64,000 nucleotides of DNA from Deltaproteobacteria bacterium (GCA_016192705.1 JACPTQ010000049.1:2180-66179); one strand, 5' to 3'. Shown: positions 41,856 through 62,277, numbered from the stretch's first letter. Numbers and translations: made by a program. Notes: generated by a model not told the origin, from the sequence alone.

Positions 41856-44800
41856 CTACAGCCCGTCCCATGTGACGAGCAAGTCCCGAATCATACGGAC
41901 CCGCTTCGCCGTGTCACCCTGCCACGGCCCCGGCGTCTTTTCCCACCCCGCGCGCGGCATGTTCACTCCGGCTTGAACCTTCAACGGATCGTTCAACCAC
42001 GGAATAAGCCAATCGGGCCGAAGCCGGTCGGGTCCAAGCGCGAGCGACGGCGCGCGCACCGGCTCGTTGACGTGGCACGCAGGACATCCCAGCGCCGTGA
42101 ACAGCTCCTTCGCCTTCGGGCGATCCTCCGCAGACAGTTCCGGCTGGTCGTAGTGCTTGAACGGGTACTCCGCCTTGTTGGTCGACGCGAAATACCACGC
42201 GAGCGACGTCGCCTGATCATCGGTGAACCCAAACGTCGGCATTCGAAGGTCAAGCCACGGTCGCAGCTTCCACGGGTGCTTCAAAAACCCAAACAACCAT
42301 TCGCTCCGAACCTTCGAACCCTCGCCGTTCAAAACCGGCGGACCGTACGACTTATCGCTGTACTCTGCGAGAATGTCGCCGCCCTTCTGCTCAATCACGT
42401 GGCACCCTTGGCAATTGTGGAAACGCACGCGATCGCGCCCGCGCTCGACCGCCTGGCGCTCATCCGACAACTTCTTCACGAACTCCTCGCCGTGAATCTC
42501 GTGTCCACGCAAGCTCCGCAAAAAAACCATCAGGTTCTCGATCCGCTCGGCTCCCCGCTTCGCGTCACGCGCGCCCGGCTTAACCGCCGCCTCTTTCGCA
42601 TCAACGTCAAAGGTAAACTTCGGCATGCGCAACCGAATACGCTGCGTCTCGTACTGCCGCGGGTCATTCAACTTGCCGCGCACCCAATCGTGCCACGTAA
42701 TTCGATTCTGTTTCGTGACGGGGTCTTTTTCGCGCCACGCCTCCTCGAGATACCCAAAGTCGAGCTGCTCCTCGATCTTGGAGCCGATTTCGTTGAGCTC
42801 GATCCCAATCTTCGATTCCTTCTCGGTCCCCTTGATTTCGTGGCAGCCAAAACACCCAAAATTCTTGACGAGCGCCAAACCCGCCTCGACATCGCCCTTC
42901 ACGAATTTCGGTGCCGCATACGCTTTCGCGCGCGTCGCGACGAGAAATTCGACGATGTCGCCCGCTTCGTCGCGCGTCAGCCTAAGGCTCGGCATGGCCG
43001 TCGTCGAATTGTGCGCCCGCGGATTTAATATCCACGACGTGAGGTGACTCTTGGCCGCGTCGGTCGCCGCGATCTTGTTGCCCACGCGCGTGAGCTCGGG
43101 TGCGAATTCGGACCCAACAAACTTGCCGCCTTCAACGAGGCCGTGGCAGCCAAGACACCCAACCGACTTGATGAGCGCGAGACCGGATTTGCGTCGCTCT
43201 TCGGGGGACTTCGCGAGAGCGGGAGAAGAAGTTAAACGCAAAGGCGCGGAGACGCCAAGGGGAGAGGCTTTTTTTTCTGGGTCTTGGCGGCTTGGCGCCT
43301 TAGCGTTGAAATCCCCTGCCGGTGCGGGTTTGGGCCCAAGCCACCCCGACATGTTCGTCTTCGCCGCTTCTTCCGGCGTCGGTACTTTCGCCTTTTGGTC
43401 GATCAAAAAAGCCGTAATCTGCCGCGCCTGCTCATCACTCAAAAAGAACTGCGGCATCCGCGTCCCGGGGCGATACTCCTGCGGATTCTTGAGCCACGCG
43501 TAAACCCAACCCGCGTCGAGCTTCGTCCCCGCGCTCATCAGCGTCGGCCCGACCTTCTCCAACGCATCGAAAAGCCCCGAGTTGTGACACCCGATGCACC
43601 CAATCCGCTTAAACTCAGCCATCCCGGCGTTCAACTTTTCCGCCCCCGCGATCTCGGCCACCCCCTCGTGACACTTCCGGCACCCCGACTCCGCGAACCG
43701 CCCCTTCTGCATCGGGTCTTCCCAATACCCCGCCCAACCGTGCCCCGCCTTCTCCATCGTCGCAATCCCTTGCCCACCATGACATGGAGTACAACCGAAC
43801 TTCTCGACCGGATGCTTCCCCAAAAGCTCGTGCCGCCGCGGGTGCGTCTCCAAAACCTTCGGAATTTCAATCGGCTGAATCGCCTTTCGCGCCGCCTTCT
43901 CATCCCGCTGAACCCACATCGCAACTTTGCTCGCGATTCCCGACACGGTTTCCGGCGACTCCGCGAGGCTCGCCGCGATCACCTGAACCGCCGTCGTCTC
44001 TTTCCCCGCCTTCTTGAGCGCCGCGAACTCCCGCGCCGCGAGCCACTGCAACAAGTCCTTCTTTAGAACACAGAATTTCGTCGCCATCTCCAGAACGAGC
44101 TTCCCGCGCTCGACCTTCAAAAACTTTTTCGCGGCCTTGTCGTCTTCCGTATCTTCAATTTTCTTCGCCTGGTCTTTCAGTTCCGCTTCGCGCGCCTCAA
44201 ACGTCCGCGCAATCTCGGCCGCCGACGAATACCCGCAACTGTCAACCGCCATATGGCACGACTGGCAACGATCGATGAGGTGAATCTTCGGATTGACCAC
44301 CTGCACGATTTCGGTACCCGACGTCTCCTTCGAATTCTTGATTCGCCGATCGACGTCTTCGATGTCTTTGAGCAGATCCTTTTTCTTTTCCTTAAGCGCG
44401 TCGAGCTGCCCCACGACCGCTGCAAGCGCGACCTTCGACTCTTTCACCGCACGCTCTTCGCCCGCAATGACAACATCCTGTTTCGCAATTCGCGCGTCAA
44501 AATCCGCGAGTTTCTTTTCCGACTCCTTCTGATTCTTTCCCGCTTCCAGCGCGTGCTTCTTAATCTTCGCCAGCTTCGCTTCATCTTTTGCCGTCCGCGC
44601 CCGCTCGGCATCCTCGTGCGCCTTGAACACCTCGAGCGTCGCAAGGTAATGGAGGTAGTACTCCGCGTCCGACTCACTCTTGATGAACGACTTTTGCTGT
44701 TCCGCATCCTTAAATCGCGCTTTCGCTTTGTCGACGTTCGAATGGAGCTCGTTGACGCGCTTGACCATTTCGGGCGTCTTCAGCGCCGTTTCGAACGACG

Positions 44801-45074
44801 CAATCTGGCCGTCAAGCGACTTAAGTTTCCCTTGGCCAGCGGGCGATTCAAGCTCTTCGATGAGGCCCAATCGCTCGCGTTCAAGCTTGTCGAGGCGCAG
44901 CTTGAAAAACGCGTTCTGATGATGCTTCCAGGGGCGCCGCGAAAACGTCTCGTCGTAAAGCGCCCAGGCCGACACACCAAGGAACATCGACCCGAGGATA
45001 AACATGTGAACGTTGTACGACTTCGACTCGACCGGCACGCTGTCGATTCGCTTGGGTTTCTCAGCACTTCCCAC
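41856..45074 (-). CDS. Membrane-anchored octaheme cytochrome c with long coiled coil
   Basis: Eight CxxCH motifs (CQSCH, CTPCH, CRKCH, CIGCH, CLGCH, CFGCH, CQGCH, CPACH), several xMP axial Met motifs, N-terminal TM helix. Confidence 0.92.
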   Translation of the reverse strand: MGSAEKPKRIDSVPVESKSYNVHMFILGSMFLGVSAWALYDETFSRRPWKHHQNAFFKLRLDKLERERLGLIEELESPAGQGKLKSLDGQIASFETALKTPEMVKRVNELHSNVDKAKARFKDAEQQKSFIKSESDAEYYLHYLATLEVFKAHEDAERARTAKDEAKLAKIKKHALEAGKNQKESEKKLADFDARIAKQDVVIAGEERAVKESKVALAAVVGQLDALKEKKKDLLKDIEDVDRRIKNSKETSGTEIVQVVNPKIHLIDRCQSCHMAVDSCGYSSAAEIARTFEAREAELKDQAKKIEDTEDDKAAKKFLKVERGKLVLEMATKFCVLKKDLLQWLAAREFAALKKAGKETTAVQVIAASLAESPETVSGIASKVAMWVQRDEKAARKAIQPIEIPKVLETHPRRHELLGKHPVEKFGCTPCHGGQGIATMEKAGHGWAGYWEDPMQKGRFAESGCRKCHEGVAEIAGAEKLNAGMAEFKRIGCIGCHNSGLFDALEKVGPTLMSAGTKLDAGWVYAWLKNPQEYRPGTRMPQFFLSDEQARQITAFLIDQKAKVPTPEEAAKTNMSGWLGPKPAPAGDFNAKAPSRQDPEKKASPLGVSAPLRLTSSPALAKSPEERRKSGLALIKSVGCLGCHGLVEGGKFVGSEFAPELTRVGNKIAATDAAKSHLTSWILNPRAHNSTTAMPSLRLTRDEAGDIVEFLVATRAKAYAAPKFVKGDVEAGLALVKNFGCFGCHEIKGTEKESKIGIELNEIGSKIEEQLDFGYLEEAWREKDPVTKQNRITWHDWVRGKLNDPRQYETQRIRLRMPKFTFDVDAKEAAVKPGARDAKRGAERIENLMVFLRSLRGHEIHGEEFVKKLSDERQAVERGRDRVRFHNCQGCHVIEQKGGDILAEYSDKSYGPPVLNGEGSKVRSEWLFGFLKHPWKLRPWLDLRMPTFGFTDDQATSLAWYFASTNKAEYPFKHYDQPELSAEDRPKAKELFTALGCPACHVNEPVRAPSLALGPDRLRPDWLIPWLNDPLKVQAGVNMPRAGWEKTPGPWQGDTAKRVRMIRDLLVTWDGL
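43221..43313. repeat. Palindromic repeat family B, in frame inside the cytochrome gene
   Basis: 93 bp, inverted copy of 46251-46343 with 4 mismatches. Confidence 0.92.
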
Positions 45075-45339
45075 GAATTTCGCTCTCCAAAAGTTGTCTA
45101 CCGGTCGACTCGATTAACACTTCGCGACGCGGCTCGTCAATTCGAAGTCATCCCTCGATTCCCGGTTAACGGCCAAGACCAGAGTGGGGCGGTCGGGTTT
45201 GGGCTCGCTCCGGCTCGCGGAAGTCCTCGGGTCTGACATGAAATGTGAGTCTGCACGAAATGAATCAAACATCATCAGAACGGCAATTCCATGCCCCATC
45301 GGCACCTCATCCCCTGCGGACGCGAACCTCCGCTTGCCC

Positions 45340-45496
45340 AATCCCCGCCCGCCCAACCAGGAACAGGCCGTTCCCCTGGAACGGCGGTTGAGAGACTTGG
45401 GGGTCGATCGATCGTCAGTCGACACCCAGCGGGTGAACTCTTCGTACAGCCCTCAAGCCTAAGAAACACGTCCCCGGAAAGCGGTCGGCAGGGATT
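45340..45496 (-). ncRNA. Structured ncRNA candidate with 6S-RNA-like rod
   Basis: Nested stems with G-U pairs only on the minus strand, and a central bubble with a small 3'-side hairpin. Confidence 0.4.
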
Positions 45497-45499
45497 TGC

Positions 45500-45619
45500 G
45501 TGGGGTCGGCAGGGACGCCGCAGAGGCGCGCCTATTCCGCGAGCAGTCTGTCGGCAAGCCAGCGGCTTGCCGGCGCGAGCGGAATGGCGAGGGCGACGGA
45601 ACGGAGCCCGCAGCCCCAC
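45500..45619. repeat. Palindromic repeat family C, intergenic copy
   Basis: TATTCCGCGAGCA...AAGCCAGCGGCTT...CGCGAGCGGAATGG...CGACGGAACGGAG. Confidence 0.7.
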
Positions 45620-45827
45620 CTTTGCGCAGGGTCTGCAGCGTGATATCGGCTTGGAGCATCGAGCTTTCGCGTGCCTCTGACCCGCGGATCGTTCGCACGC
45701 CTCAAATCAGACCCGAGGACATCGGCGCGCCGAAGCGGGCTCCTGTCGACCCTCACGCTCACGAGCGACCGGACCGCTTAACCGGGGATCGGGGGAAGTC
45801 ATCGTCTGAAAGCGGTGTTAATGTACA

Positions 45828-46994
45828 ATGGTTCTCATGTTGGGGCGCATCACGATTTTCGCGTTGATGGGTGGCGTATTGACCGCCGGGACTGCGCGTG
45901 CGGAGACGGCGCGCGAGGCGGCCGAGAAGCTTGCGAAGGCGGGCGATGGTTACGCGAAGCAGGGCGACGCGAAACTCGCGGTGATGGCGTATCGGCGCGC
46001 GATTGACCGCGACGCGACGTTCGCGCCACCTTACGCGGGGATTGGGTATTTGCTGCTCAAGGCCGGCGAGAAGCGGGAGGCCGCGGTTTTTTTTGACCGG
46101 TACCTGGCGCTCGAGACAAGGCCGTCGGAGGCGGCGAACGTTGCGCGCGTCAACGAGGCGCTCGCGGGCATTCGACCGAAGGCCGCTCCCGCGCCCGCAC
46201 CCGTAACCGCTCCCGCAGCCGCTGGCGCTCCCGCACCCGCTCCCGCAGCGGATTTCAACGCCAAGGCGCCAAGCCGCAAAGACCCAGAAAAAAAAGCCTC
46301 TTCCCTTGGCGTCTCCGCGCCTTCGCGTTTAACTTCTTCTCCCACACCCGCAACCGCCTCATCACTCCGCGACGCCGACCAGCTCTTTCGCCGACGCGAT
46401 TACAAAGCCGCGGCCGCCGCCTACCAAAAACTTGCCGCCGCTTCGAAGACCGCCACGGAACCTCGCTTCAAGCTCGCTGTCGCGCTCACCGCCCTCGCAC
46501 GCTGGAAGGAAGCGCTCGCCGCATGGGATGACGTTCTCGCCGTCGATCCAAAGAACGCCGCGGCTCGGCTCTACCGAGAGCGCGTCGCCGAAAAAGCCGC
46601 GAAAGTCATCGACGCCGCTCTGCTGCCCGCCGACGACGCCGTCAAGCGCGCCGCAATCGCCCTCGGCGACGGTTCGCCAAGCTTAACGCTCCGCCTGACC
46701 GGAAGCGTCCTCGCGACGACGCCCGACCGCGCCGATGCGCTCATTCTCCGTGCGCGCGCCTTCGCCGCCCTCGGTCGCTTCGACGACGCCGTGACCGCCG
46801 TTCGCCGCGCGCTCTCGCAAAATCCCGGCGACCCTCGCGCGCACTTCGCTCTCGGCGAAACGCACCGAGCCCTCGGTGAACGCGACAAGGCCCGCGCTGC
46901 GTTTTTGCGCTTCCTCGCGATCGTCGACGCGACCGACGCCAACTTCGCACGCGACATCGCCTTCGCGCGCCGTTACGTCGAGAGCCAACCGTGA
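45828..46994 (+). CDS. Secreted TPR-repeat protein
   Basis: Signal peptide and several TPR motifs (e.g. RAHFALGETHRALGERDKA). Confidence 0.85.
   Translation: MVLMLGRITIFALMGGVLTAGTARAETAREAAEKLAKAGDGYAKQGDAKLAVMAYRRAIDRDATFAPPYAGIGYLLLKAGEKREAAVFFDRYLALETRPSEAANVARVNEALAGIRPKAAPAPAPVTAPAAAGAPAPAPAADFNAKAPSRKDPEKKASSLGVSAPSRLTSSPTPATASSLRDADQLFRRRDYKAAAAAYQKLAAASKTATEPRFKLAVALTALARWKEALAAWDDVLAVDPKNAAARLYRERVAEKAAKVIDAALLPADDAVKRAAIALGDGSPSLTLRLTGSVLATTPDRADALILRARAFAALGRFDDAVTAVRRALSQNPGDPRAHFALGETHRALGERDKARAAFLRFLAIVDATDANFARDIAFARRYVESQP
46251..46343. repeat. Palindromic repeat family B, in frame inside the TPR gene
   Basis: GATTTCAACGCCAAGGCGCCAAG...CTTGGCGTCTCCGCGCCTTCGCGTTTAACTTCTTCTCCC. 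Confidence 0.92.
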
Positions 46995-47004
46995 GGTCAC
47001 GATA

Positions 47005-48129: not shown

Positions 48130-49647
48130 GTGACCTACGCAACGGGTCTCGTTCTCGGCTTTTTCGGAACAACGTTTTGGTTCGTCAGCGCCGAGACGTA
48201 CGTTGTCGCGAAGTCGCCGTCGCTCAGTTGGCCAATGCTCCTCGTCGTCTGTGCCGCGTGCGGACAGGTCGCGGGGTTCACGGCGCTCTACTTTCTCGGT
48301 GAAAAGATTCTGCGACGATTGAAGCGACTGCGCGCGAAGGTCGAGACGTTCGACGTCAGCCGTTTCCAAAAATCGACCTACGGCGTTCTCGCCGCGTCAA
48401 GCGTTTTGGGCTTTCCGCCGCTTTCGGTCGTCGCGGTCGCCTCGGGCACAATTCGTCTCAAGTATTCGACGTTTTTCCCGTTCGCGCTCGTCGGGCGCAT
48501 CATCCGGTTCACGATCGTATTGTTGCTGGGTCAACAGTTTCTCGCGCTGACGTGCGCGGGGGAAGGAATCAAACGCAAAGGCGCCGAGACGCCAAGGGAG
48601 GAGGCTTCTTTTTTGGGGCCTCTGCGGCTTAGCGCCTTGGCGTTGAAATCCCCTTGGGATGCGGGAGCGGCCCGCGAAGTCGTTCGGCGTTCGCGCGTGC
48701 AGATGGGGACGACGGTGTCGTTCAGCGCGGTTGGTGACGAAACCCACGTGGCGCGGGCGTTTGACGAGGCGTTCACCGAGATCGAGCGCTTCGAAGCGAT
48801 GGCGAGTGAGTACCGCCCCGACAGTGTCATATCGACGCTGAATGAAAACGCGGGCAGACGACCCGTCGACATTCCCGACGACCTCTTCGCGCTCATCGAG
48901 CGTTGCCTCGCGCTTTCGCGCGAATCAGGCGGCGCCTTCGACGTCACGTTTCTCGGCATGGGAAAAATTTGGGATTTCCGCGCCGACCCACCACGCGTTC
49001 CCGACGCAAAGCTTGTTGAAACCGAACGCAAGCGCATCGACCACCGCCGACTTCGCCTCGACGCCGTCAAAAAAACGGCCTTCCTCGAACGCGCGGGAAT
49101 GCGCGTCGGGCTTGGCGCCATCGGCAAGGGCCAAGCGATCGATCGCGCGGCAACGATCTTTCGCCGCCACGGCCTCGCGAATTTTCTCGCAGCGGCGAGC
49201 GGCGACCTTTACGTCGCCGGGTCGAAACCGGGCGGCGCACCGTGGCAAATCGGAATCCAGCATCCGCGCGATCCCACGCGGCTCGTGGCTCGCCTCACCG
49301 TTCGCGATCGCGGCGTCTCGACGTCGGGCGATTACGAGCGCTTCTTTGTCGCGCAGGGACGCCGCTTCCACCACATCATTGATCCGCGCACCGGCTACCC
49401 GGCCGACGGTCTCGCGAGCGTGACCGTCATCGCACCCGACGCAACAACATCGGACAGCCTCTCAACCGCCGCCTTCGTTCTTGGTCCCGCACGCGCTCTC
49501 GATTTTCTCGCGAAGCACCCCGGTGTCGACGCACTCCTCATCGACACGCGCGGCCGCATCACCCTAACGCCCGGCTTTCGCGCGCTCGTTCGGTTCGAGC
49601 CGCCGGCCACGGAGTCCCACGCAGGCGGCGACTTTTATCGCCCGTAG
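48130..49647 (+). CDS. apbE: Fusion of VTT/DedA-like membrane domain and FAD:protein FMN transferase
   Basis: N-terminal hydrophobic domain (GFPPLSVVAVASG...VGRIIRF), then MGT, GAFDVT, LGAIGKG, STSGDYER, HHIIDPRTGYP, SDSLSTA. Confidence 0.85.
   Translation: MTYATGLVLGFFGTTFWFVSAETYVVAKSPSLSWPMLLVVCAACGQVAGFTALYFLGEKILRRLKRLRAKVETFDVSRFQKSTYGVLAASSVLGFPPLSVVAVASGTIRLKYSTFFPFALVGRIIRFTIVLLLGQQFLALTCAGEGIKRKGAETPREEASFLGPLRLSALALKSPWDAGAAREVVRRSRVQMGTTVSFSAVGDETHVARAFDEAFTEIERFEAMASEYRPDSVISTLNENAGRRPVDIPDDLFALIERCLALSRESGGAFDVTFLGMGKIWDFRADPPRVPDAKLVETERKRIDHRRLRLDAVKKTAFLERAGMRVGLGAIGKGQAIDRAATIFRRHGLANFLAAASGDLYVAGSKPGGAPWQIGIQHPRDPTRLVARLTVRDRGVSTSGDYERFFVAQGRRFHHIIDPRTGYPADGLASVTVIAPDATTSDSLSTAAFVLGPARALDFLAKHPGVDALLIDTRGRITLTPGFRALVRFEPPATESHAGGDFYRP
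48558..48653. repeat. Palindromic repeat family B, in frame at the VTT/ApbE junction
   Basis: AAACGCAAAGGCGCCGAGACGCCAAGG...GCGCCTTGGCGTTGAAATCCCC. Confidence 0.88.
49594..49629. repeat. 36-bp direct repeat, copy 1
   Basis: TTCGAGCCGCCGGCCACGGAGTCCCACGCAGGCGGC, 34/36 identical to 50864-50899. Confidence 0.9.
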
Positions 49648-51067: not shown

Positions 51068-54000
51068 TTATTGCTGAAAAACGGCGAAGTATTGCCGCGG
51101 GAGACCACCGATCGTCGTGAAGTCGCCCCCCGCGTACAAGAGGCCCCCCGAGACCGCGAGCGCCCAGGGCGTGTTGTTCGCATTCGGGTTCCAGGCGGTC
51201 GCGAGTCCAGCGTCGTCGATCGCCGCGATGTAGTTTCGGCCCGCGTCGCCGATGTTGTTGAAGTCGCCGCCCACGTAAACCAGGCCGCCAGAGACCGTGA
51301 GCGCGTTGACCCCCTGGTCCGGGTTCGGGTTCCAGGCCGTCGCGAGCCCCGCGTCGTCGAGCGCCGCGATATTGTTACGGCCCGCGTCGCCGATGGTCGT
51401 GAAACCCCCGCCCGCGTAAACCAATCCGTCCGAGACCGTGAGTTCGGAAACCGAGCTGCTTGGCGCGTTCGGGTTCCAGGCCGTCGCGAGGCCGGCGTCA
51501 TCGAGCGCCGCGATGCGGTTCCGGCCAGCGTCGCCGATGCTCGTGAAAGAACCGCCCGCGTACACAATGCCCCCCGAGACCGCGAGCACGTCAACATAGC
51601 TGCCCGCGTTCGGGTTCCAGGCCGTCGCGAGAGCGGCGTCGTCGAGCGCCGCGATGTAGTTTCGTCCCGCGTCGCCAATGCTCGTGAAAGAACCCCCCGC
51701 GTAAACTAGGCCCCCCGAGACCGCGAGCGCCCGGACCGAACCGATCGGCGCATTCGGGTTCCAGGCCGTCGCAAGGCCAGCGTCATCGAGCGCCGCGATG
51801 CGGTTCCGGCCCGCGTCGCCGATATTCGTGAACGAACCCCCCGCGTAAACCAGGCCCCCCGAGACCGCGAGCGCCAGTACATCGGAACTGGCGTTTGGGT
51901 TCCACGCCGTTGCTGCCCCAGTTCCATCGAGCGCCGCGATTCGATTTCGGTTCGCGCCACCGAAGCTCGTGAAAAACCCCCCCGCGGAAACCCAACCGTT
52001 CGAGACCGCCAGCGCGTTGATTTGGCCGCCTGCGTTTGGGTTCCAAGTCGTCGCGACGCCGGTGCCATCAATCGCCGCGATGTAGTTCCGGCCCGCGTCG
52101 CCGATGCTCGTGAATACGCCCGCGGCGTAAACCAGGCCCCCTGAGACGACGAGTTCGCTGACCGTGCTGTTCGCGTTTGGGTCCCAGGCCGTCGCAAGCC
52201 CAGCGTCATCGAGCGCCGCGATTCGACTTCGGCCCGCGTCGCCGATACTCGTGAACGAACCCCCCGCATAAACCAGGCCCCCCGAGGCGGCGAGCACGTT
52301 GACCGCGCTGCTCGCGTTCGGGTCCCAGGCCGTCGCAAACCCGTCGCCATCGAGCGCTGCGATGTATTTTCGGCCCGCGTCACCGATGGTTGTGAAGTTT
52401 CCCCCCGCGTAAACCAGGCCCCCCGAGGCGGCGAGCGTGTAAACCGAGCTGCTCGCGTTCGGATTCCAGGCCGTCGCGAGGCCGGCGTCGTCGAGCGCCG
52501 CAATGTATTTTCGGCCGGCATCGCCGATCGTCGTGAAAAATCCGCCCGCGTAGACCAGGCCCCCCGACACCGCGAGAGCGGTGACTGTGCCATTCCCGTT
52601 CGGATTCCAGGCTGTTGCGACGCCGGTGCTATCGATCGCCGCAAGTCGGTTTCGGCCCGCATCGCCGATCGTCGAGAAGGCCCCGCCCGCGTAAACCAGA
52701 TTCCCCGACACCGCGAGCGCGGAAACCTGGCTGCCCGCGTTCGGGTTCCATGCCGGATCGACGTCGCCGCTCGCAAGAATATGCGCGATTCGATTTCTCG
52801 TTTGCCCGTTCACGGTTAAGAATTGGCCGCCGATATACCAGCCCCCCGCGTCGTCGCTCGCGATGGCACTGACGTCACCATCGACGCGCAACCAAGTGAG
52901 CGTCACCTTCGCCGTCGTTTCGTTGATTGCGACGAACGACCCGGTCGGCGGCCCAACGTGTGTGAACTTCCCGCCGATATAAACAAGCCCGTCCGATTCC
53001 GCGATCGCAAACACCGTTTGGTTCGCGACCCAGAAGTAGTCGAGCGGCGAATCGGGGTTTTTCCGATAACCGGGGTCGACGGTCGACAAGCCGCCGTCAG
53101 AGCCGCCGACCGACGCGAGGCAGCGATACCAGCGCCGGTGCCCGTTCGCGGGTGCTCCCACGTCATCGAACGATGCGCCAGTTCCTCCATCAAGATCGGT
53201 CGGGTAAGGATCATTCTCGTCGCGAAGGACCTGCCATTGGCACGCGATGTCACCTCCACGATACCCCGTGTCCGCCGCTGACCACGCGCTCGCGTCGATC
53301 GAGTTCTTCGCCCGCACCTTGTAACTCGACACGGCGCCGCCCGCCACGCTCGCGCCCGAGAGGGTGAGCGCGACGTGAGTCGTGTAGGTTCCGTCCGATG
53401 CGGTCGCATTGCCCGCCGAAGCCAGTACCCGCGGGGGTGCGCCGTAGTCCTCGAACGAAGTCGTCGATACCTCGGCCAACCCAGCGTCGTCCCTCGAAAC
53501 GAGATAGCTCGTCGCGCCCACGCTCGCGTCCCACGTGACGAGAACGTGCGTGCTGAATATTCCGTCGGATGCGACAACGCCCGTCGGAGCTTCGGGTGGT
53601 GACCCAGCATCTAAACCCGCGCCCGCATCCGCACCGGCGCCACCATCCGCTCCCGCGCCCGCATCGGACGAGGTGCAAAAAACGCCCGCCGCGCAGACGT
53701 AATTCAGCGTAACGACCTTTGCGCCGCCTCCGAATTGAATCGGCTGGAGCGCGTCGGTCACGGTCGAGACGGCTTCCGCGACGATCTCGATATTCCCCGC
53801 GTTCGTCCGATAGATTCTCCCCAGCACATTAAACCCATTACCGAGGGGATCGCCGGATAAGGAAAGCGCCCACGAAAGCTGACTCGTGAAAGGATTCGAC
53901 AGCGCGCTCACTTTCCCTTCGAGTTTTCCGTCGCCATCAACATCGCCAACTTCGAAGCTGTACGGAATCCCGTCGGCCACACCTTGCGTGACCGCGCGCG

Positions 54001-54259
54001 CCTCGGCGTAGAGCGAACCGGCGTCAGTGGGTTCGTCGAGAATGGTATGAATCTGCGAAATGGTGGCGCGAACGTCAGTCAAGAAACCCACGGGGAGCTG
54101 GTGGCGGATTTCGATAGTCTTTGACGTATCGACCACCGTGGTTGTGCATCGAAGCGTGAGCACGGCGGCGATACAACCGACCCAGCAGCGAGCGAAATCG
54201 ATGCGCGGCCCGTTGCCCACGATTGCCAATGTAGCACGTGGGCTACTCAACTTGAACAA
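51068..54259 (-). CDS. Large secreted beta-propeller repeat protein with Fn3-like region
   Basis: Twelve clear ~41-aa repeats (W[ND]PN..V.ALAVSGGLVYAGG.FT.IGDAGRN.IAALD) plus about two degenerate ones. Start uncertain. Confidence 0.88.
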   Translation of the reverse strand: MFKLSSPRATLAIVGNGPRIDFARCWVGCIAAVLTLRCTTTVVDTSKTIEIRHQLPVGFLTDVRATISQIHTILDEPTDAGSLYAEARAVTQGVADGIPYSFEVGDVDGDGKLEGKVSALSNPFTSQLSWALSLSGDPLGNGFNVLGRIYRTNAGNIEIVAEAVSTVTDALQPIQFGGGAKVVTLNYVCAAGVFCTSSDAGAGADGGAGADAGAGLDAGSPPEAPTGVVASDGIFSTHVLVTWDASVGATSYLVSRDDAGLAEVSTTSFEDYGAPPRVLASAGNATASDGTYTTHVALTLSGASVAGGAVSSYKVRAKNSIDASAWSAADTGYRGGDIACQWQVLRDENDPYPTDLDGGTGASFDDVGAPANGHRRWYRCLASVGGSDGGLSTVDPGYRKNPDSPLDYFWVANQTVFAIAESDGLVYIGGKFTHVGPPTGSFVAINETTAKVTLTWLRVDGDVSAIASDDAGGWYIGGQFLTVNGQTRNRIAHILASGDVDPAWNPNAGSQVSALAVSGNLVYAGGAFSTIGDAGRNRLAAIDSTGVATAWNPNGNGTVTALAVSGGLVYAGGFFTTIGDAGRKYIAALDDAGLATAWNPNASSSVYTLAASGGLVYAGGNFTTIGDAGRKYIAALDGDGFATAWDPNASSAVNVLAASGGLVYAGGSFTSIGDAGRSRIAALDDAGLATAWDPNANSTVSELVVSGGLVYAAGVFTSIGDAGRNYIAAIDGTGVATTWNPNAGGQINALAVSNGWVSAGGFFTSFGGANRNRIAALDGTGAATAWNPNASSDVLALAVSGGLVYAGGSFTNIGDAGRNRIAALDDAGLATAWNPNAPIGSVRALAVSGGLVYAGGSFTSIGDAGRNYIAALDDAALATAWNPNAGSYVDVLAVSGGIVYAGGSFTSIGDAGRNRIAALDDAGLATAWNPNAPSSSVSELTVSDGLVYAGGGFTTIGDAGRNNIAALDDAGLATAWNPNPDQGVNALTVSGGLVYVGGDFNNIGDAGRNYIAAIDDAGLATAWNPNANNTPWALAVSGGLLYAGGDFTTIGGLPRQYFAVFQQ

Positions 54260-55608: not shown

Positions 55609-56030
55609 TTTTTCCTCGCCGACAAGAACTCCTCAAGTATCACGGCCGCCGCGGCTCCGTCGATTCGCCGCTTGCGCTCGCGCTTAAACCGCGCGCTGTT
55701 CGGCGCCGCGACCCGAAGCCGCTCGGCCGCCGCGACCGTCGAAAACCGCTCATCCCACGTCAGAACCGGCACCCGCACCCGCGCACGCAACGCCTCCACA
55801 AACTCTAAGACGTTTGCCGCCGCCTTTCCGATCTCTCCGTCGCGACCAAACGGTACCCCAACGACGACGCCCTCAAACTCCCCCTCCTCGATATAGCGTG
55901 CAAGCGCCGCAAGGTCCTTTTCGCGCCCCACGCGTTCGAGCGGCTCGTCCGGCGTCACCACGATTTCGAACGCGTCGCAGTGTGCGCGCCCAATCCGCCG
56001 CGAGCCGTAATCAAGCGCCAAAAACCGCAT
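55605..56030 (-). CDS. ruvX: Holliday junction resolvase RuvX/YqgF
   Basis: LALDYGSRRIG, VVGVP, WDERFST, IDGAAAAVIL. Confidence 0.95.
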   Translation of the reverse strand: MRFLALDYGSRRIGRAHCDAFEIVVTPDEPLERVGREKDLAALARYIEEGEFEGVVVGVPFGRDGEIGKAAANVLEFVEALRARVRVPVLTWDERFSTVAAAERLRVAAPNSARFKRERKRRIDGAAAAVILEEFLSARKK

Positions 56031-56072
56031 CGCGCCGCAGCATTACGAGGATCGCGACGAATTGTAAAGTGT

Positions 56073-57224
56073 TCAGGAAATCCCAAGCATTGCAAGAATT
56101 TCCGCGGTGTGCTCGCCAAGACGTGGTGGCGGCCGATCAAGAGCACCCGGCGTCTCGGCGAGTTTCACCGGAATCCCGATCTGCGGAACGTCGCCGGTGA
56201 CAGGGTGTTTGACCGTTGTCACCATGCCGCGCGCGCGAAGCTGCGGGTGCGCGAGTGCCTCAGCGACCGTGTTGATCCGCCCCGCGGGGATGTCGGCCGC
56301 CTCAAACTTCGAAACCCACGAATCAACCGGCGCCGTCATGAACGCCGCTTGGAGCTCCTCAAACAGTGCGTCGCGATGGGCCACGCGATCGGGATTTGTC
56401 GCAAAGCGCACATCCCGCGCGAGATCGGGCCGCCCGATCGCCTCGCACGCCTTTCGAAAATGGCCGTCGTTCGCAGCCGCTAAATTGAAGTAGCCGTCCG
56501 CCGCGCGAAACGTCTCGTACGGCACAATCGACGGATGCCGATTCCCGGCGCGCGTCGCCGTTCGCCCCGACGTCATCGTGCTCGCCGCCTGAAACGTGAG
56601 AAGCGACGTGAGCGCGTCTTGGAGCGACACATCGACGTGCTGCCCGCGCCCCGTTTTCTCGCGCACCAAGAGCGCCAGCAAAATCCCCTGCACGGCGTAC
56701 AGCCCCGACGCGAGGTCGGCGATCGAAACGCCCGTCTTCATCGGTGGCCCCGCGGGATCCCCCGTGAGCGACTGCACCCCGCAAAGCCCCTGGATGATGA
56801 GGTCGTAACCCGGTTTCGCCGAAAACTCCCGAATCCCCGACTGCCCATACCCCGTGATGCTGCACGTCACAAGCCGCGGGTTCTCCGCGCGCAGCCCGTC
56901 GAGCCCGAGACCCAGCCGCTCGAGCGTCCCCGGCCGAAAATTCTCGACGCACACATCCGAAACCCGCGCAAGCGCCCGCACCACCTCGCGCCCGCGCTCC
57001 GATTTCAAATCGAGCGCAACCGATCGCTTTCCGCGATTCACGCTCATAAAATACGTCGACTCGCCCGCGATGAACGGCGGCCCAAACGCCCGCGCATCGT
57101 CGCCCCCCTTCGGATGCTCGAGTTTCACGACGTCCGCGCCCATATCCGCGAGGTGCATCGTCGCGAACGGCCCCGACAGCACCCGCGACAGGTCGAGCAC
57201 GCGAACCCCATCGAGAGGTTTCAT
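56073..57224 (-). CDS. CaiB/BaiF class III CoA-transferase
   Basis: PLDGVRVLDLSRVLSGPF, NRGKRS, ENFRPG, GYD. Confidence 0.95.
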   Translation of the reverse strand: MKPLDGVRVLDLSRVLSGPFATMHLADMGADVVKLEHPKGGDDARAFGPPFIAGESTYFMSVNRGKRSVALDLKSERGREVVRALARVSDVCVENFRPGTLERLGLGLDGLRAENPRLVTCSITGYGQSGIREFSAKPGYDLIIQGLCGVQSLTGDPAGPPMKTGVSIADLASGLYAVQGILLALLVREKTGRGQHVDVSLQDALTSLLTFQAASTMTSGRTATRAGNRHPSIVPYETFRAADGYFNLAAANDGHFRKACEAIGRPDLARDVRFATNPDRVAHRDALFEELQAAFMTAPVDSWVSKFEAADIPAGRINTVAEALAHPQLRARGMVTTVKHPVTGDVPQIGIPVKLAETPGALDRPPPRLGEHTAEILAMLGIS

Positions 57225-57230
57225 GGCCAT

Positions 57231-57268
57231 CCTCCGTGAAACCTCCGTGGTTCAGTGCCTCCGTGGTT
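57231..57268. repeat. CCTCCGTG x3 short repeat
   Basis: Minus strand CCACGGAGGCACT is shared with 33837-33849. Confidence 0.55.
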
Positions 57269-57280
57269 TCTCTTTATTCC

Positions 57281-57961
57281 TTACGCGTTCACGACGCGCG
57301 CCGGCGCCGCGTGCGGCTTATTCCAGAACGCGATTCGGTACGCGATGTATCCGACCAAGAGCCCGCCAAAGCTGTCGACGACGTAATGCTGCTTCGTCGT
57401 GAGAATCGACACAGCCAAGCAAAGCGCCATCCCGATCGTCACCAAGCCCGAGCGCTTGTTATCGCGGAATGTGCTCAAGGCGCACGCGAACGAGAGCGCC
57501 ACGTGCGACGAGGGGAACGTGTTGTTCGCGACGTCGATCTGCCGCACCCATTGAAGAAACGAAACATGCCAGTAATGGGTTCCGTCTGGGAGATCCGGCC
57601 GCGGGTAGCTCGACGGCACCGAAAGAAAAAACGCGCAGCAGATGACCATCCCGATTGCGATGCTCCCGAGCGTGCGGAAATAGATCTCGCGCTTACGAAT
57701 GGAAAAGGTGGAGACGTGAAAAATAAGGACGTAAAACGGCAGATAACACCAAACCGTCCACGGCCAAAACGGGACCCAGTTGTCGATTTCAAGGTAAAAC
57801 GCGGTCTGGCGCGCCGCGGTGAACTCGCCAATCCAGGTGTAAAGGAAGTAGCAGCATCCCGCGAACGTTAGGCTCCAGACGTATTTCTCGAGCTGCCACT
57901 GCCAGGTCAATTTTTCAGTTTTCTCGTCCACGCCTTCTCCGAAGCGAAAATCCGACACCAT
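57281..57961 (-). CDS. PAP2-family membrane phosphatase/phosphotransferase
   Basis: YPRP, NNTFPSSHV, SILTTKQHYVVD. Confidence 0.9.
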   Translation of the reverse strand: MVSDFRFGEGVDEKTEKLTWQWQLEKYVWSLTFAGCCYFLYTWIGEFTAARQTAFYLEIDNWVPFWPWTVWCYLPFYVLIFHVSTFSIRKREIYFRTLGSIAIGMVICCAFFLSVPSSYPRPDLPDGTHYWHVSFLQWVRQIDVANNTFPSSHVALSFACALSTFRDNKRSGLVTIGMALCLAVSILTTKQHYVVDSFGGLLVGYIAYRIAFWNKPHAAPARVVNA

Positions 57962-58411
57962 TTATACCATAAGTCCGGTTTGCGGTTCAACGCCTTCCTG
58001 CGGGTAATGGCTGACGGCGACGCGATTCCCCTCAGGGTCCCGAAAATACAAGGAAAAATCTGTGTTCGCCTCAACAGGAACGCCCATGTCGGCGAGACGG
58101 CGTTCGAACGCGACGCGCTCTCCGGGCGCCACTCGAAACGCCAAAAGGAACGGTCCCAGCCCAACGCCGAGAACGCGCCTTGCCTTGTCGTCCGTGCGCT
58201 CAATCATTAACGTCGCACCCCCACCCACGTTAAGCCAGATCGAACGAAGTTTTCCAGCGGCGTCGGGGTGCCGCGCGATTTCGGCAAGTCCAAACGTGTC
58301 GCGGTAAAACGCCGCGACGCCCGCGACGTCGTGCGCGCCCAGCGCGAGGTGGTGGATTTTGGACAGTGACGCGCCCGAATGAATAAGACCGTCGTTGTCG
58401 ACGTCTAACAT
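57962..58411 (-). CDS. VOC/glyoxalase family protein
   Basis: IHHLALGAHDV...FYRDTFGL, SLYFRDPEGNRV. True start probably ~58366. Confidence 0.85.
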   Translation of the reverse strand: MLDVDNDGLIHSGASLSKIHHLALGAHDVAGVAAFYRDTFGLAEIARHPDAAGKLRSIWLNVGGGATLMIERTDDKARRVLGVGLGPFLLAFRVAPGERVAFERRLADMGVPVEANTDFSLYFRDPEGNRVAVSHYPQEGVEPQTGLMV

Positions 58412-58464
58412 CGTGTGGGACCATTACCGCAAATCGGGGGGCACGTTAAGAGGGAGGAGACTCG

Positions 58465-59031
58465 ATGATCTACGGCCGTTTTTTCAATCTCGTGGGGATC
58501 GCGACGATTGCCGCTTCCGCCGGGTCGGCGAACGCGGCCGGGACCGCGTCCGACCGCGAGGATTGGATGATCCAGGCGCTCACGGGAACCTTCCGTCCGC
58601 ACGACCGTTACAGCGCGAAGTCGTTTTCGCTCCTCGTGCTAAAGCGCGACAAGATTTACCACTTCGAAAAAGACGCGTCGTGCAACGCACGCGCGCGCGC
58701 GTCGTGCCCAGCAGGGGAGTCGAAGACGGGCGGTTTCTCCGTGAAGAAAAAGGGCGCGCAAATTGAGCTCACGCTCGCGCTGACAAAGGGCGGAAGCCGG
58801 GTTTATCTGGTGACGCCGATCGACAAGCCCGGGTCGTACGCGCTTTCGATGAAGCCGGCGTCGGGAATGACGATACAGCTCTTTCGCGCGAAGAAGGTCT
58901 CGGAGTTTTGGTGCGAGCACAAGAAAGACTGCGAAAAGCAGGGGATGCCGCGGCTCTGCGAGGGCGGGCCGTCGGAGCTCTCGTGCGCGCGAAATCGATG
59001 CGCGGCGAAGTGCCTGCCGATGGGCGATTGA
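58465..59031 (+). CDS. Secreted hypothetical protein with Cys-rich C-terminus
   Basis: SD GGAGGAG, signal peptide, WCEHKKDC...C...C...C. Confidence 0.75.
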   Translation: MIYGRFFNLVGIATIAASAGSANAAGTASDREDWMIQALTGTFRPHDRYSAKSFSLLVLKRDKIYHFEKDASCNARARASCPAGESKTGGFSVKKKGAQIELTLALTKGGSRVYLVTPIDKPGSYALSMKPASGMTIQLFRAKKVSEFWCEHKKDCEKQGMPRLCEGGPSELSCARNRCAAKCLPMGD

Positions 59032-59037
59032 AACTCT

Positions 59038-59409
59038 GTGAACGGCTGGTTTGTCGCGGCGGCCGCGGTGTCCGTAGTGGCATTCGGCATTCATTTCTTT
59101 TTGGGCGGGCGAGACACCGCACGGCCGCTCCTTGCGGCGTCGGACATCGAACCAACCGCAAAATTCACGCACTACTTCGGTTGGCATATCATTTCGATCA
59201 TCCTCGTTGCGATGCCGGTCGGGTTTATTATGGCCGCGTTTCGGATCGAGTCGCGCGCGCTCGCCTGGATGATGACGGCGCTCGCCGTGAGCTTCGCGAT
59301 CTGGAACCTTGCGCTTATCGCGTGGAAATATCGCTATCCGTGGCGGCTTCCTCAGTGGACTCTGTTTCTTCCGATCTCGGCGTTGGGCGCAATCGGGCTC
59401 ATCGTATAA
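59038..59409 (+). CDS. Small four-TM membrane protein
   Basis: Hydrophobic segments, IHFFLGG, YFGWH, LPQW. Confidence 0.75.
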   Translation: MNGWFVAAAAVSVVAFGIHFFLGGRDTARPLLAASDIEPTAKFTHYFGWHIISIILVAMPVGFIMAAFRIESRALAWMMTALAVSFAIWNLALIAWKYRYPWRLPQWTLFLPISALGAIGLIV

Positions 59410-59416
59410 ACCGACG

Positions 59417-60388
59417 TCAGTTGGAGACGCCGACACGCTCGCCGATGCGCACGCGGACTTCGTAGCCAGCTGCGGCGTGGCGAACGAGGTCGTCGTCGAA
59501 GGCGATGCGGTTTTTCGGAAAGAGGACGACCAGCGTTGAGCCACCGAAGCGAAAGCGGCTTTTCTCGTCGCCTTTTTTCACGGTGCGCCCGGGATTAAAA
59601 ACCGATTCGATCGAACTGATGAGAAAACCGCCGACGTCAACAAGCGCGAGGCGGCCAAAGCGTGCGGAGTCGAACGTCGTCACGGTGCGCTGGTTGCGCG
59701 TGAAAAATGTCGGGTTCAACCTCCGTTCCGTCGGTCTCCCCATTTTCGCCGCGCACGAAAGCCGCTGGCTTTCGCACCTTTGCGGCGAATATAAAGCGAT
59801 GTCGTTGCCCGGGAGCGGGCTCACCGAATAGTAGGCGCCGGGAACGAGTCGCGGAACGCCGGGAACGCCGTCACATGGAAAGTAGAGGCGGTGGCAATCG
59901 GCGAGATAGAGGCGAAAGATGGCCGCGGCGCCGCCTTCGAACGCCGAAGCGAGCTCTGCGTCGTCGAGAAGCTCGGCGAGCGTGAACCGGACGCCTTTCA
60001 CGTCGAGTCGCGCGCCCTCGTGAAGCGAGGGGAAGACCTGGAGTTTAGAATCCGCAGGCGACGCAAAAACGTTTGGGTCGCGATCGAACGGGCGCAGCTC
60101 CGGCTTGAGTCGCCGCGTAAAAAAATCGTTGAACGACTTGAAGCCACCCGGCGGGACGATCATCTCGGACATGTCGATCCCCGCGCGGGCGGCGAAGCGT
60201 GCGATGAGGCGTCGCGAGTGGGCGCTGTCGGCATAGCGCTCGACGGCGCGGTGGAGCGCGCGCGATTCGAAAACGAGCGGTTGTAGTCGCCGCCCCAACG
60301 CGTTCGTCATCATGAAACGAAAAAACGGTCCCAACGCAATCGACTCGTCGGTCACGTCGAGCGTGTGCCGATCGATGATGCCACCCAT
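59417..60388 (-). CDS. psd: Phosphatidylserine decarboxylase carrying a 28-aa repeat-derived insertion
   Basis: FKSFNDFFTRRLKP, SPADS, FRLYLADCHR, FRFGGST cleavage motif. ATG overlaps the sulfatase stop. Confidence 0.9.
   Translation of the reverse strand: MGGIIDRHTLDVTDESIALGPFFRFMMTNALGRRLQPLVFESRALHRAVERYADSAHSRRLIARFAARAGIDMSEMIVPPGGFKSFNDFFTRRLKPELRPFDRDPNVFASPADSKLQVFPSLHEGARLDVKGVRFTLAELLDDAELASAFEGGAAAIFRLYLADCHRLYFPCDGVPGVPRLVPGAYYSVSPLPGNDIALYSPQRCESQRLSCAAKMGRPTERRLNPTFFTRNQRTVTTFDSARFGRLALVDVGGFLISSIESVFNPGRTVKKGDEKSRFRFGGSTLVVLFPKNRIAFDDDLVRHAAAGYEVRVRIGERVGVSN
59708..59791. repeat. Palindromic repeat family C, in frame inside psd
   Basis: Minus strand TATTCGCCGCAAAGGTGCGAAAGCCAGCGGCTTTCGTGCGCGGCGAAAATGGGGAGACCGACGGAACGGAG. 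Confidence 0.75.
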
Positions 60389-62277
60389 TAGTCTCTTCCT
60401 TTCGTCGTCGCTGGGCGATTCTCGAACGCGAACCACTCGGCGAGCCGCCCACGCAGCGCGCGCAGAACGGCCGGCTCGGTGCGAATCAGATTCCGCGACT
60501 CGCCGGAATCGCCATCGAGCCGAAAAAGTTCCTCAGCGCCACCGCGCCACAACACATACTTGCAACGCCCCCACGTTACCGACACCACGCGATCGAGAAC
60601 AATTGAAAACGCTGGGCGAGATGCTTGGGGCGTCGACAGCGAATTCGGCGTCTTCATCTTATAGAGGTCCCTGAGCCCATTCACGAGATCGACGGTCGAC
60701 ACCGTTGCATCAACGATCTGCCCCCCGCCTCCGCTACCGCTCCCGCATCCGCCACCGCAGGGGATTTCAACGCCAAGACGCAAAGTCGCAAAGCCTGAAC
60801 CCTCTTCCCTTTGCGTCTCCGCGTCTTTGCGTTGATCTCTTCTCCCGCTCCCGCTACCGCTCGTCCCCCACGTCCCCACAATAAACGGCACGCGCACCAA
60901 CTCCTCATACACCGTATGCGCATGACCGACCGACCCGTGCTCCCAAAACTCTTCACCGTGGTCCGCCGTGATGACAACAAGTGTCTCCTTCGCAAGCCCC
61001 ATCGCATCCAGCGCCTTCATCAACTCTCCAAACGCGAAGTCGGTGTACTCGACCGCGCCGTCGTACAGCGCGTGCAAGAACGCTCGATCGCGTTCGCCAA
61101 GACGCAGCGCGCGGGTCTTAATAAGGTCGAGCTGGTCGCCGGTTTTCGCCGGCACCAATGGGCCGACGTATCGCCCTGGAAAAAACCGCGACCAGAAGCG
61201 GCGCGGCGGATTGTACGGTACGTGCGGGTCGACAGGCTGCATGTGCAAGAAAAACGGTTTTCTATCCGCCTTCGCGCGAAGCCACTTGAGCGCGATGTCG
61301 TTCAACCGCTCCGCGCGATACGGACGCCCTTCGCGAAGCGGGTTCCTCACAAAGTCGAAGCCGCGAACAAAGCCGTGCTGCGCGGCGATGTAGCCGTTTG
61401 CGACCACCGCCGCCGTTGCGTGCCCGGCGGCGCGAAACTGCTCGGCCATCGTCGGCATCGCCTTTGTCGCTGGGAGTTTGTCGTCGTGCGCGTTGCACCC
61501 ATGCGCGCCCGGGTAGAGCCCCGTGAGGAGCGTCGCGATCGTCGGCTTCGACCAAGACGATGTCGCAACCGCGCGCTCGAAGCGAACGCCGTTTGCCGCA
61601 ATGCGGTCGAAGTTCGGCGTCTTGACACGGTGAAGCGCGCGCCCCACATGGTCGGCTCGGAGCGTGTCGACGACATAGAAGAGAACATTGGGCAACGCGG
61701 TGATCCCCGCAAACGGATTCACAGGCGATGCGGGAACCGCGCATTCCGCCAGGGGCGGCGCCGCGCTCGGCACCTCAGATGGAACAGAGGCAAGCGAGAC
61801 TGCGGCAAACGGCTGGCCGGTCACGAGTTTTCCCCGTTGACGTCGCGTGGCACCCATCACGGCCCGGAACTTTCGCCCACCCGAAAAATCAAACCCGATC
61901 TCTTGGCGCCCCGCCTTTGTCTCGGGGAGTGCGATCTCGACGCGCGCTGATTCGCGCGGCAACGCACCGGTAAAAACCACGGCTCGATTCCAGAACACCG
62001 TGACGCGCGCAACCGACGAAACCAATCGCCGCCATTCAAGCACGAGTTTTTCGCCCTTCGCGATCGACCCGGTTTCAACAAACAGCTCCGCCTGACGTCG
62101 AACGGCAACCCAATCACCCGATGCGCCGAGCGACCAGCCCGTGTGAAACCCGCCGAGCGCCGCGCGCGCCGTACGCCGTGTTTTTTCTGCGCCCGCATCC
62201 GCGCCCGCATCCGCAACCGCTCCCGCCACGGACAACCAACAAACAAACCCCCGCAGAGCGACCCACATCGGCCGCAT
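60388..62277 (-). CDS. Sulfatase-family hydrolase
   Basis: NVLFYVVDTLRADH, SSWSKPTIATLLTG, DPHVPY, TADHGEEFWEHG, YEELVRVP. Confidence 0.9.
   Translation of the reverse strand: MRPMWVALRGFVCWLSVAGAVADAGADAGAEKTRRTARAALGGFHTGWSLGASGDWVAVRRQAELFVETGSIAKGEKLVLEWRRLVSSVARVTVFWNRAVVFTGALPRESARVEIALPETKAGRQEIGFDFSGGRKFRAVMGATRRQRGKLVTGQPFAAVSLASVPSEVPSAAPPLAECAVPASPVNPFAGITALPNVLFYVVDTLRADHVGRALHRVKTPNFDRIAANGVRFERAVATSSWSKPTIATLLTGLYPGAHGCNAHDDKLPATKAMPTMAEQFRAAGHATAAVVANGYIAAQHGFVRGFDFVRNPLREGRPYRAERLNDIALKWLRAKADRKPFFLHMQPVDPHVPYNPPRRFWSRFFPGRYVGPLVPAKTGDQLDLIKTRALRLGERDRAFLHALYDGAVEYTDFAFGELMKALDAMGLAKETLVVITADHGEEFWEHGSVGHAHTVYEELVRVPFIVGTWGTSGSGSGRRDQRKDAETQREEGSGFATLRLGVEIPCGGGCGSGSGGGGQIVDATVSTVDLVNGLRDLYKMKTPNSLSTPQASRPAFSIVLDRVVSVTWGRCKYVLWRGGAEELFRLDGDSGESRNLIRTEPAVLRALRGRLAEWFAFENRPATTKGRD
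60763..60846. repeat. Palindromic repeat family B (diverged), in frame inside the sulfatase gene
   Basis: GATTTCAACGCCAAGACGCAAAG...CTTTGCGTCTCCGCGTCTTTGCGTTGATCTCTTCTCCC, flanked by hexamer tracts. Confidence 0.85.

Follow-up and report, generated by a model that had tools for sequence, protein, structure and literature searches.

How one palindromic DNA sequence comes to be read in frame within the genes of four unrelated proteins is the question raised by a 64,000-nucleotide stretch of the genome of Deltaproteobacteria bacterium (GCA_016192705.1, JACPTQ010000049.1:2180-66179), which is referred to here as the window and corresponds to C57:2180-66179 in our contig numbering. The palindromic element, family B, had been noticed in an earlier reading of the window made from the letters alone (the sequence-only reading). 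The best-known case of a palindromic repeat that has entered genes in frame on a large scale is that of Rickettsia. The host considered here is a free-living, high-G+C groundwater bacterium with a 5.21-Mb assembly of 88 contigs (62% G+C; 96.65% complete); its closest kin in the species set searched belongs at best to the same phylum, and a Rickettsia host is excluded, as the best protein matches of the genes hosting the element carry the names Myxococcota or Polyangia. The best explanation as a whole, which is probably correct, is that family B is the gene-less, non-autonomous form of a nuclease-carrying hairpin cassette, and that its in-frame copies are tolerated as passengers.

Four In-Frame Copies of Family B in the Window

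The four hairpin copies (Table 1) lie where the sequence-only reading had placed them and encode the peptides that it had written out. Each copy resides within a single long open reading frame (ORF), with an in-frame coding score of 0.16–0.36 per codon on both flanks, according to a codon log-odds model trained on long ORFs, in which the 5th percentile of in-frame 450-nt windows is 0.16 and the 95th percentile of off-frame windows is 0.07. Copies 1 and 2 are read in the forward sense of the element and copies 3 and 4 in its reverse sense, in agreement with the earlier claim of a DNA-level palindromic repeat that is read in frame from both strands. Copies 1 and 2 share 96% identity over 93 bases, and a 16-base arm pattern allowing up to two mismatches is matched seven times in the window (0.30 expected), a number reached in none of 100 shuffles. 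The sense-strand RNAs of copies 1–4 are predicted to fold with energies of −40.9, −27.4, −51.3, and −46.3 kcal/mol (z = −4.9, −2.0, −2.6, and −5.8, respectively).

Mis-assembly, which had been raised as a possible artefact, is contradicted by four groundwater metagenome runs of a single study, two of which are possibly the source sample, as their contigs contain identical junctions and no indels. The Logan contigs end within the repeats, as expected of repeated words, and the junctions of copies 1–3 in independent samples rest on overlapping pieces, not on single bridging contigs.

Family Size, Gene Context, and the Two-Frame Rule

Iterated nhmmer searches identified 93 non-overlapping family-B loci over about 50 contigs, and 92 of these are 33–87 bp long and carry no gene, the exception being C76:27100-27470. 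The genome-wide tabulation that the sequence-only reading had suggested, made here with the codon model, places 74 copies in called genes and 19 outside genes or at gene edges. Of the former, 65 are interior (40 with a coding signal on either side and 25 with a weak signal on one side), and 9 are near a gene end. Pfam annotation of the 59 ORFs that host the 65 interior copies revealed 20 copies, in 18 ORFs, with domains on both sides or lying within one domain match. These hosts include glutamate synthase GltB (two copies), D-Ala-D-Ala ligase (Ddl), MTHFR (MetF), a UvrA-like protein, CheA (between Hpt and P2), a UvrD-type helicase-nuclease, an Xer-like recombinase, a DegT aminotransferase, an MFS transporter, a molybdopterin enzyme, the Der GTPase (a 33-bp fragment), and the cytochrome, VTT-ApbE protein, and sulfatase of the window. 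At least eight more hosts are Ser/Thr kinases, in which the copy is located after the kinase domain identified by Pfam.

The 40 interior copies with the best coding support use two of the six frames exclusively, F2 (n = 28) and R0 (n = 12); among all copies in called genes (n = 74), F2 accounts for 47, R0 for 23, and other frames for 4. The internal stops of the element do not account for this two-frame rule, because frames F0 and R1 are each stop-free in 35 of 43 F2-read copies, yet are never used. Diversity among the copies amounts to 0.19, 0.17, and 0.21 at the three codon positions, with no third-position excess, and the complementarity of the arms is 0.71 both within a copy and across copies; neither the peptide nor the hairpin therefore appears to be maintained after insertion.

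Absence of the Inserted Segments from Homologous Proteins

Family B is almost certainly a DNA-level repeat that was inserted in frame and is tolerated in loops and linkers. The comparison with homologues covered the sulfatase, cytochrome, and ApbE hosts. None of the 11 aligned sulfatase homologues (33–46% identity) has the 45-residue segment formed by the hairpin peptide together with its two Gly-Ser flanks, and invariant residues lie on either side of this segment; the Pfam sulfatase match ends at profile position 271 of 301, directly before copy 4, and in the AlphaFold2 model (mean pLDDT 64), residues 474–517 have pLDDT values below 50 and lie between confident core strands. The cytochrome peptide is likewise absent from 11 of 11 homologues, and its site is a variable inter-domain linker: in the stop-to-stop ORF (L181), Pfam places Cytochrome_CBB3 at residues 495–570 and Cytochrom_C at 652–725, with the element at residues 599–628 between them. 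Together with the Pfam-bracketed hosts described above, the cytochrome linker and the low-pLDDT sulfatase segment bear out the proposal that the copies occupy loops and linkers of unrelated proteins, and the absence of the segments from the sulfatase and cytochrome homologues agrees with the indels that the sequence-only reading had anticipated.

In the third host, a VTT-like membrane part is joined to an ApbE domain, which stands alone in all 119 homologues listed; copy 3 thus forms the joint of a fusion seen only here, and the hairpin may have helped to create this fusion. A collection of 5.8 billion proteins contains no close orthologues of these three hosts, the best non-self identities being 44% for the sulfatase, 43% for the cytochrome, and 49% for ApbE, which precludes an empty-site comparison. 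The DNA of the family-B element was not found in the 40 phylum-mates searched.

Coupling of the Hairpins to Hexamer Tracts

The sequence-only reading had missed that the hairpins are coupled to tracts of the hexamer (CCGCNN)n. The genome contains 551 tracts of at least three units, the longest being 150 bp, and a 34-base tract pattern has 735 matches in this genome, as compared with at most 41 in any of 40 phylum-mates. At least two sense-strand hexamer units lie within 30 bp of 57 of the 93 hairpins, as opposed to 65 of 5000 random sites, and antisense units lie within this distance of none of the 93; tracts are also found at 13 of the 19 non-coding copies. On the left, 8 or 14 nt separate the last unit from the AACGC anchor in 34 of 34 copies, and on the right, 7 or 13 nt separate GCGT from the first unit in 18 of 19 copies, from which it follows that the hairpin is located at a hexamer unit boundary.

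Tracts are read as linkers in hundreds of genes; within well-supported genes, 105 tracts are read forward as (Ala-Pro/Ser/Thr)n and 290 backward as (Ala-Gly/Asp/Val/Glu)n, with few in other frames. The codon usage of the corresponding peptide runs, which were detected without any codon condition, is extreme. In the Ala-Pro class, Pro is encoded by CCC in 90% of cases (25% genome-wide), Ser by TCC in 88% (10%), Thr by ACC in 86% (25%), and Ala by GCA or GCT in 79% (16%), while in the Ala-Gly class, Ala is encoded by GCG in 88% (60%) and Asp by GAT in 73% (35%). As this usage is complementary between the two peptide classes, the tract is one DNA repeat used on both strands, and the "APAPAP" and "GAGA/GSGS" stretches beside the hairpin peptides come from it.

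The tracts also accompany a second kind of insert. PF05635, the 23S rRNA intervening-sequence protein family (a four-helix bundle), has 35 matches in the genome, which form about 18 conserved cassettes of about 1 kb with two convergent genes each. These cassettes occupy intergenic gaps and adjoin gene ends; long tracts that share the strand of the first gene border 10 of the 18 on both sides, and 5 more have a tract on one side, 4 of these 5 being at contig ends. Examples are found at C41:113811-114854, C2:3401-4534, and C3:12586-13686, and none lies in the window. The C3 cassette has a family-B hairpin within its right tract. Since hairpins and PF05635 cassettes are both tract-flanked, the tract is a shared context of at least two kinds of insert. 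Whether it serves as a target or as a carried end of the inserted unit is roughly even, and an independent microsatellite is a third option. A more speculative and rather doubtful proposal is that the lineage carries a tract-guided insertion system, in which (CCGCNN)n at about 400 genic sites would either receive at least two kinds of selfish cassette in a fixed phase or form their carried ends. If this were true, 8-mer-armed hairpins and paired PF05635 genes would together have added linkers and peptides to much of the proteome, including essential enzymes, and tract-guided in-frame insertion would be a mechanism not described for Rickettsia palindromic elements (RPEs) or miniature inverted-repeat elements of the MITE type.

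Table 1. Family-B hairpins, hexamer tracts, and host ORFs in the window (positions counted from its first nucleotide).
Feature	Position	Strand	Remarks
Family-B hairpin, copy 1	43221..43313	(-)	Read in F2; multihaem cytochrome c gene, between two cytochrome c domains
Family-B hairpin, copy 2	46251..46343	(+)	Read in F2; TPR protein gene
Family-B hairpin, copy 3	48558..48653	(-)	Read in R0; junction of VTT-like membrane part and ApbE domain
Family-B hairpin, copy 4	60763..60846	(+)	Read in R0; within sulfatase domain
Hexamer tract	100..188		
Hexamer tract (CCGCNN)n	46183..46249	(+)	Adjoins copy 2 on left; translates to Ala-Pro-rich linker
Hexamer tract	53616..53663		
Hexamer tract	60725..60760	(+)	Adjoins copy 4 on left; opposite strand read as Gly/Ser/Cys-rich stretch
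Short hexamer tract	60844..60863	(+)	Adjoins copy 4 on right; read as Gly-Ser stretch
Hexamer tract	62181..62245		
Host ORF P0001, multihaem cytochrome c	41856..45074	(-)	8 CxxCH motifs; Pfam cytochrome c
Host ORF P0002, TPR protein	45828..46994	(+)	Pfam TPR
Host ORF P0003, VTT-like membrane part fused to ApbE	48130..49647	(+)	Pfam: weak VTT match, then ApbE
Host ORF P0004, sulfatase	60388..62277	(-)	Pfam sulfatase

Gene-Less Hairpins and GxxExxY Cassettes in Other Phyla

The sequence-only reading had regarded the element as an independent family, a claim that needs revision, as hairpins sharing its 8-mer arms and ends are present in many phyla. A 19-base degenerate arm pattern, searched in one genome per species, identified at least 119 loci, in a quantity of DNA in which single matches are expected by chance. 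The family HMM recognized 38 full-length palindromes among the loci listed, from Sorangium, Acidobacteriota, Verrucomicrobiota, Planctomycetota, Chloroflexota, Gammaproteobacteria, Gemmatimonadales, Prevotella, Chlamydiae, and others. Their arms consist of two to four tandem 8-mers of the NCGCAAAG type, their ends have the form TTyAACGC...GCGTTGAA, and their loops range from 10 to about 300 bp. These 38 palindromes are mostly intergenic among the loci listed: open frames of 100 codons or more border only 3 of them on both sides, as compared with 53 of 83 copies in the present genome. A distant search of a plasmid collection gave no match to the element.

The exceptional copy at C76:27100-27470 is 370 bp long, and its family-B arms enclose a truncated GxxExxY (PDDEXK_3) gene that matches PF13366 positions 34–117 with 84 bits. 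The sole intact PF13366 gene of the genome, at C31:27261-27614(-) (148 bits), lies between inverted 8-mer arms of the CACAGAG type, and the N-terminus of its protein is encoded by an arm. In four other genomes with gene-less hairpins, 9 of 10 full-length PF13366 genes lie between inverted 8-mer arms, 4 of them of the CGCAAAG type, and two strong PF13366 matches in phylum-mates likewise have 8-mer arms. The family-B HMM matches both flanks of the PF13366 loci L134–L138 in other genomes, and gene-less and gene-bearing forms with like arms coexist in all three genomes checked (L021/L136, L063/L135, and L055/L138). A published description of GxxExxY hairpin cassettes was not found in the literature searched by family names and arm sequences. 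These observations point to family B being, quite likely, a gene-less derivative of the GxxExxY hairpin cassette.

The sequence-only reading had also suggested a search for a linked transposase or nuclease, such as RAYT or GxxExxY. The latter half of this suggestion is supported by the truncated gene in C76 and by the arms around PF13366 genes elsewhere, whereas the RAYT half is not, as the RAYT Y1 transposase family (PF01797) has no match in the 96.65%-complete assembly.

Proposed Origin of the In-Frame Copies and Alternative Explanations

The hairpin has arms of three to four tandem 8-mers each (NCGCAAAG type) and termini resembling TTCAACGC...GCGTTGAA, and in many bacteria the same arms surround a small GxxExxY nuclease gene (PDDEXK_3, PD-(D/E)XK). 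The empty, MITE-like hairpin would have multiplied to about 93 copies in this genome, being placed exactly at (CCGCNN)n unit boundaries and always on the strand of the tract. The forward reading of a tract–hairpin–tract unit would then provide an Ala-Pro/Ser/Thr linker with a DFNAKAQRSKDARNETSSLGASAPLRQIP-like peptide, and the reverse reading an Ala-Gly/Asp or Gly-Ser linker with a QRKDAETQREEASVLAPSRLGVLALNP-like peptide. The copies surviving within genes would be only those with these two readings, located in surface loops and inter-domain linkers where a disordered insert of 30–50 residues may be tolerated, and the peptides would be passengers rather than selected modules. The two-frame rule most likely reflects selection on the whole tract–hairpin–tract unit, because a benign, probably disordered insert results only when the tract is read as Ala-Pro or Ala-Gly and the hairpin in the corresponding open frame; the frame would thus be set by selection and not by the mechanism of insertion. 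The tracts may be the target or a carried part of the unit, and the mover may be a GxxExxY-type nuclease or another enzyme acting in trans. That a GxxExxY-type nuclease moved the copies is a tentative possibility.

Several observations weigh against this explanation. No clear target-site duplication is seen; the CCGC on both sides of the copies may be a duplication or simply part of the tract. The assembly lacks an intact nuclease gene between family-B arms, and as the arms in C31 are of the CACAGAG type and the C76 gene is truncated, there is no demonstrated mobiliser. To our knowledge, nothing is known experimentally about GxxExxY proteins, and no solved structure matches them by sequence; their function is listed as "Unknown", with mixed clades and multiple transfers, in PMC3424549. 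The contigs of the four runs from one study contain neither an empty site nor a polymorphism, and movement has thus not been observed directly; the earlier description of the family as recently active accordingly stands only in part, in that pairwise identity among the copies reaches 98% but has a median of 74%. Some 10 loci among the 93 are divergent and have low scores, and the gene calls depend on a custom codon model. Furthermore, 36 of the 93 copies have no adjacent tract, and tracts favour the reverse reading (290 vs. 105), whereas hairpins favour the forward reading (47 vs. 23), which a model with equal targets does not predict.

The tract, rather than the hairpin, might be the primary self-propagating unit, expanding by slippage or as an element with direct-tract bounds, with hairpins and cassettes lodged in it as passengers and solo tracts left as recombination remnants. 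This alternative, which we consider unlikely, draws on the number of tracts relative to hairpins (551 vs. 93), the excess of pattern matches over every phylum-mate, the codon usage (Pro CCC, Ser TCC, and Ala GCG) that marks a DNA-level unit on both strands, the tract-flanked PF05635 cassettes as a second type of insert, and the absence of the entire tract–hairpin–tract segment from the sulfatase homologues. However, gene-less hairpins of the same class occur in other phyla without tracts, which indicates that the hairpin can exist and spread alone, 36 copies here are free of a tract, and we know of no mechanism that expands CCGCNN units alone. Selection for a functional RNA or DNA signal, such as an RNase III site, a translational pause at domain borders, or a protein-binding array, could also have retained the hairpins, as 68 of 74 copies keep a fold with z < −2, many copies are located at domain boundaries, and processing at the RNA level is described for related hairpin elements of 23S rRNA (PMC4990558). 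This co-option is nevertheless very unlikely: pairing is not kept up by compensatory change, given the equal complementarity within and across copies, and the host functions are unrelated. The consensus fold of the 74 copies yielded only the outer 8 invariant pairs, none of which has a two-sided change; the misalignment of the 8-mer repeats limits the fold to these pairs and precludes a covariation test. Rfam gave no match at E up to 1 in window positions 43000–61000, and in nine public loci, only sub-threshold microRNA-like hairpin matches.

Movement as a conventional MITE or REP, whether by a classical transposase (a DDE insertion-sequence enzyme or RAYT Y1) or by an integron integrase acting on attC-like sites, would explain the small size, the high copy number, and the imperfect terminal inverted repeats of family B; the ends of several copies, compared by eye, also resemble the motif RYYYAAC...GTTRRRY, a likeness that counts in the same direction. 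This explanation appears highly improbable, as PF01797 is not matched (DDE and other transposase families were not searched individually), the best genomic match to the integron integrase model TIGR02249 scores 82 bits against a curated cut-off of 265, and the genome contains no long element bounded by family-B arms besides the 370-bp C76 copy. Integron attC sites were rejected as an identity of the copies, which are dispersed over about 50 contigs and not in cassette arrays, with no integrase above the cut-off. A parent transposon between public arms more than 400 bp apart was likewise rejected, because such arms enclose housekeeping genes and not transposases; at L092, for example, the 4-kb stretch between the arms contains NTP-transferase, epimerase, and acetyltransferase genes. 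The remaining alternative, a protein-level repeat, a conserved peptide module, or an assembly artefact, is practically untenable. The peptides are indeed alike among hosts, but the results contradict it, since the element is read on both strands, is palindromic at the DNA level, lies outside genes or at gene edges in 19 of 93 copies, lacks a codon-position pattern, is absent from the sulfatase and cytochrome homologues, and has the same junctions in the contigs of the four runs. A tolerated, gene-less hairpin derived from a nuclease cassette is preferred as the explanation of family B.

Relation to Known Systems

The behaviour of family B is closest to that of the RPEs, the precedent named in the sequence-only reading. 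In the review PMC10969869, RPEs are described as short palindromic repeats that lie in frame in many unrelated genes, encode a conserved peptide per family, and occupy fold-compatible positions; R. conorii has 44 RPE insertions, almost half of them in ORFs, and occasional in-frame fusions are noted there for ERIC and other repeats (PMC10969869). Family B is similarly a palindromic repeat that is in frame in many unrelated ORFs and encodes a conserved peptide, the comparison being one of behaviour and not of sequence. It differs from RPEs in residing in a high-G+C genome of another phylum, in having arms of tandem 8-mers, in being read on both strands in one fixed frame each, in being phase-locked to hexamer tracts that add linker residues, and in having a candidate parent cassette with a nuclease gene.

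GxxExxY (PF13366) cassettes share with family B the inverted tandem 8-mer arms and, in several genomes, the same CGCAAAG-type 8-mers and termini, and one family-B copy retains part of the gene. In contrast to these cassettes, 92 of the 93 family-B copies have no gene, for which reason they are classified as gene-less derivatives, and the gene-less forms elsewhere are mostly intergenic, whereas family B is mostly genic. The intervening sequence (IVS) of 23S rRNA is another parallel, being presented in PMC4990558 as a selfish, hairpin-bounded element with a small ORF (PF05635 family) that is tolerated in an essential gene product. Family B is likewise a hairpin-bounded selfish insert in essential genes, and the genome holds about 18 PF05635 cassettes that share its hexamer-tract flanks. 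However, the IVS is removed from the rRNA as RNA, while the family-B insert stays in the reading frame and is presumably translated. With MITE, REP, and REPIN elements, family B shares its small size, non-autonomy, inverted ends, and many copies, but neither a parent insertion sequence or RAYT nor a clear target-site duplication was found for it.

A second, unrelated case in a free-living, high-G+C groundwater bacterium shows that in-frame colonisation by palindromic repeats is a more general phenomenon, and this case adds a fixed frame per strand, a built-in linker-coding flank, and a candidate parent element. Many proteins, including some essential enzymes, carry the same extra peptide, as the hosts GltB, D-Ala-D-Ala ligase, MetF, the UvrA-like protein, and CheA illustrate, and family B thus provides a lead on how selfish DNA adds disordered segments to proteins. 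The candidate parent carries a small nuclease that is spread across phyla, and family B also provides a lead on the role of GxxExxY proteins and 8-mer hairpins.

Other Features of the Window

Two weak tyrosine-recombinase-like matches (33–35 bits to the integron-integrase model, well under its cut-off) are located upstream of the hairpin copies, at window positions 21196–21384 and 30643–30864 (C57:23375-23563 and C57:32822-33043). A dispersed repeat of about 640 bp, without an Rfam match, occupies the intergenic region at 45150–45800, between the cytochrome and TPR genes; it is represented genome-wide by 357 BLAST pieces with 80–95% identity, and many contigs end in it. In the metagenome runs, the summed contig depth is 320–510 in the bins at 44803–46004, as compared with 5–25 in other bins. 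Finally, a 1063-residue ORF at 51068–54259(-) contains, at 51108–52753, tandem repeats of 8–9 units of 141 nt with 69–80% identity.

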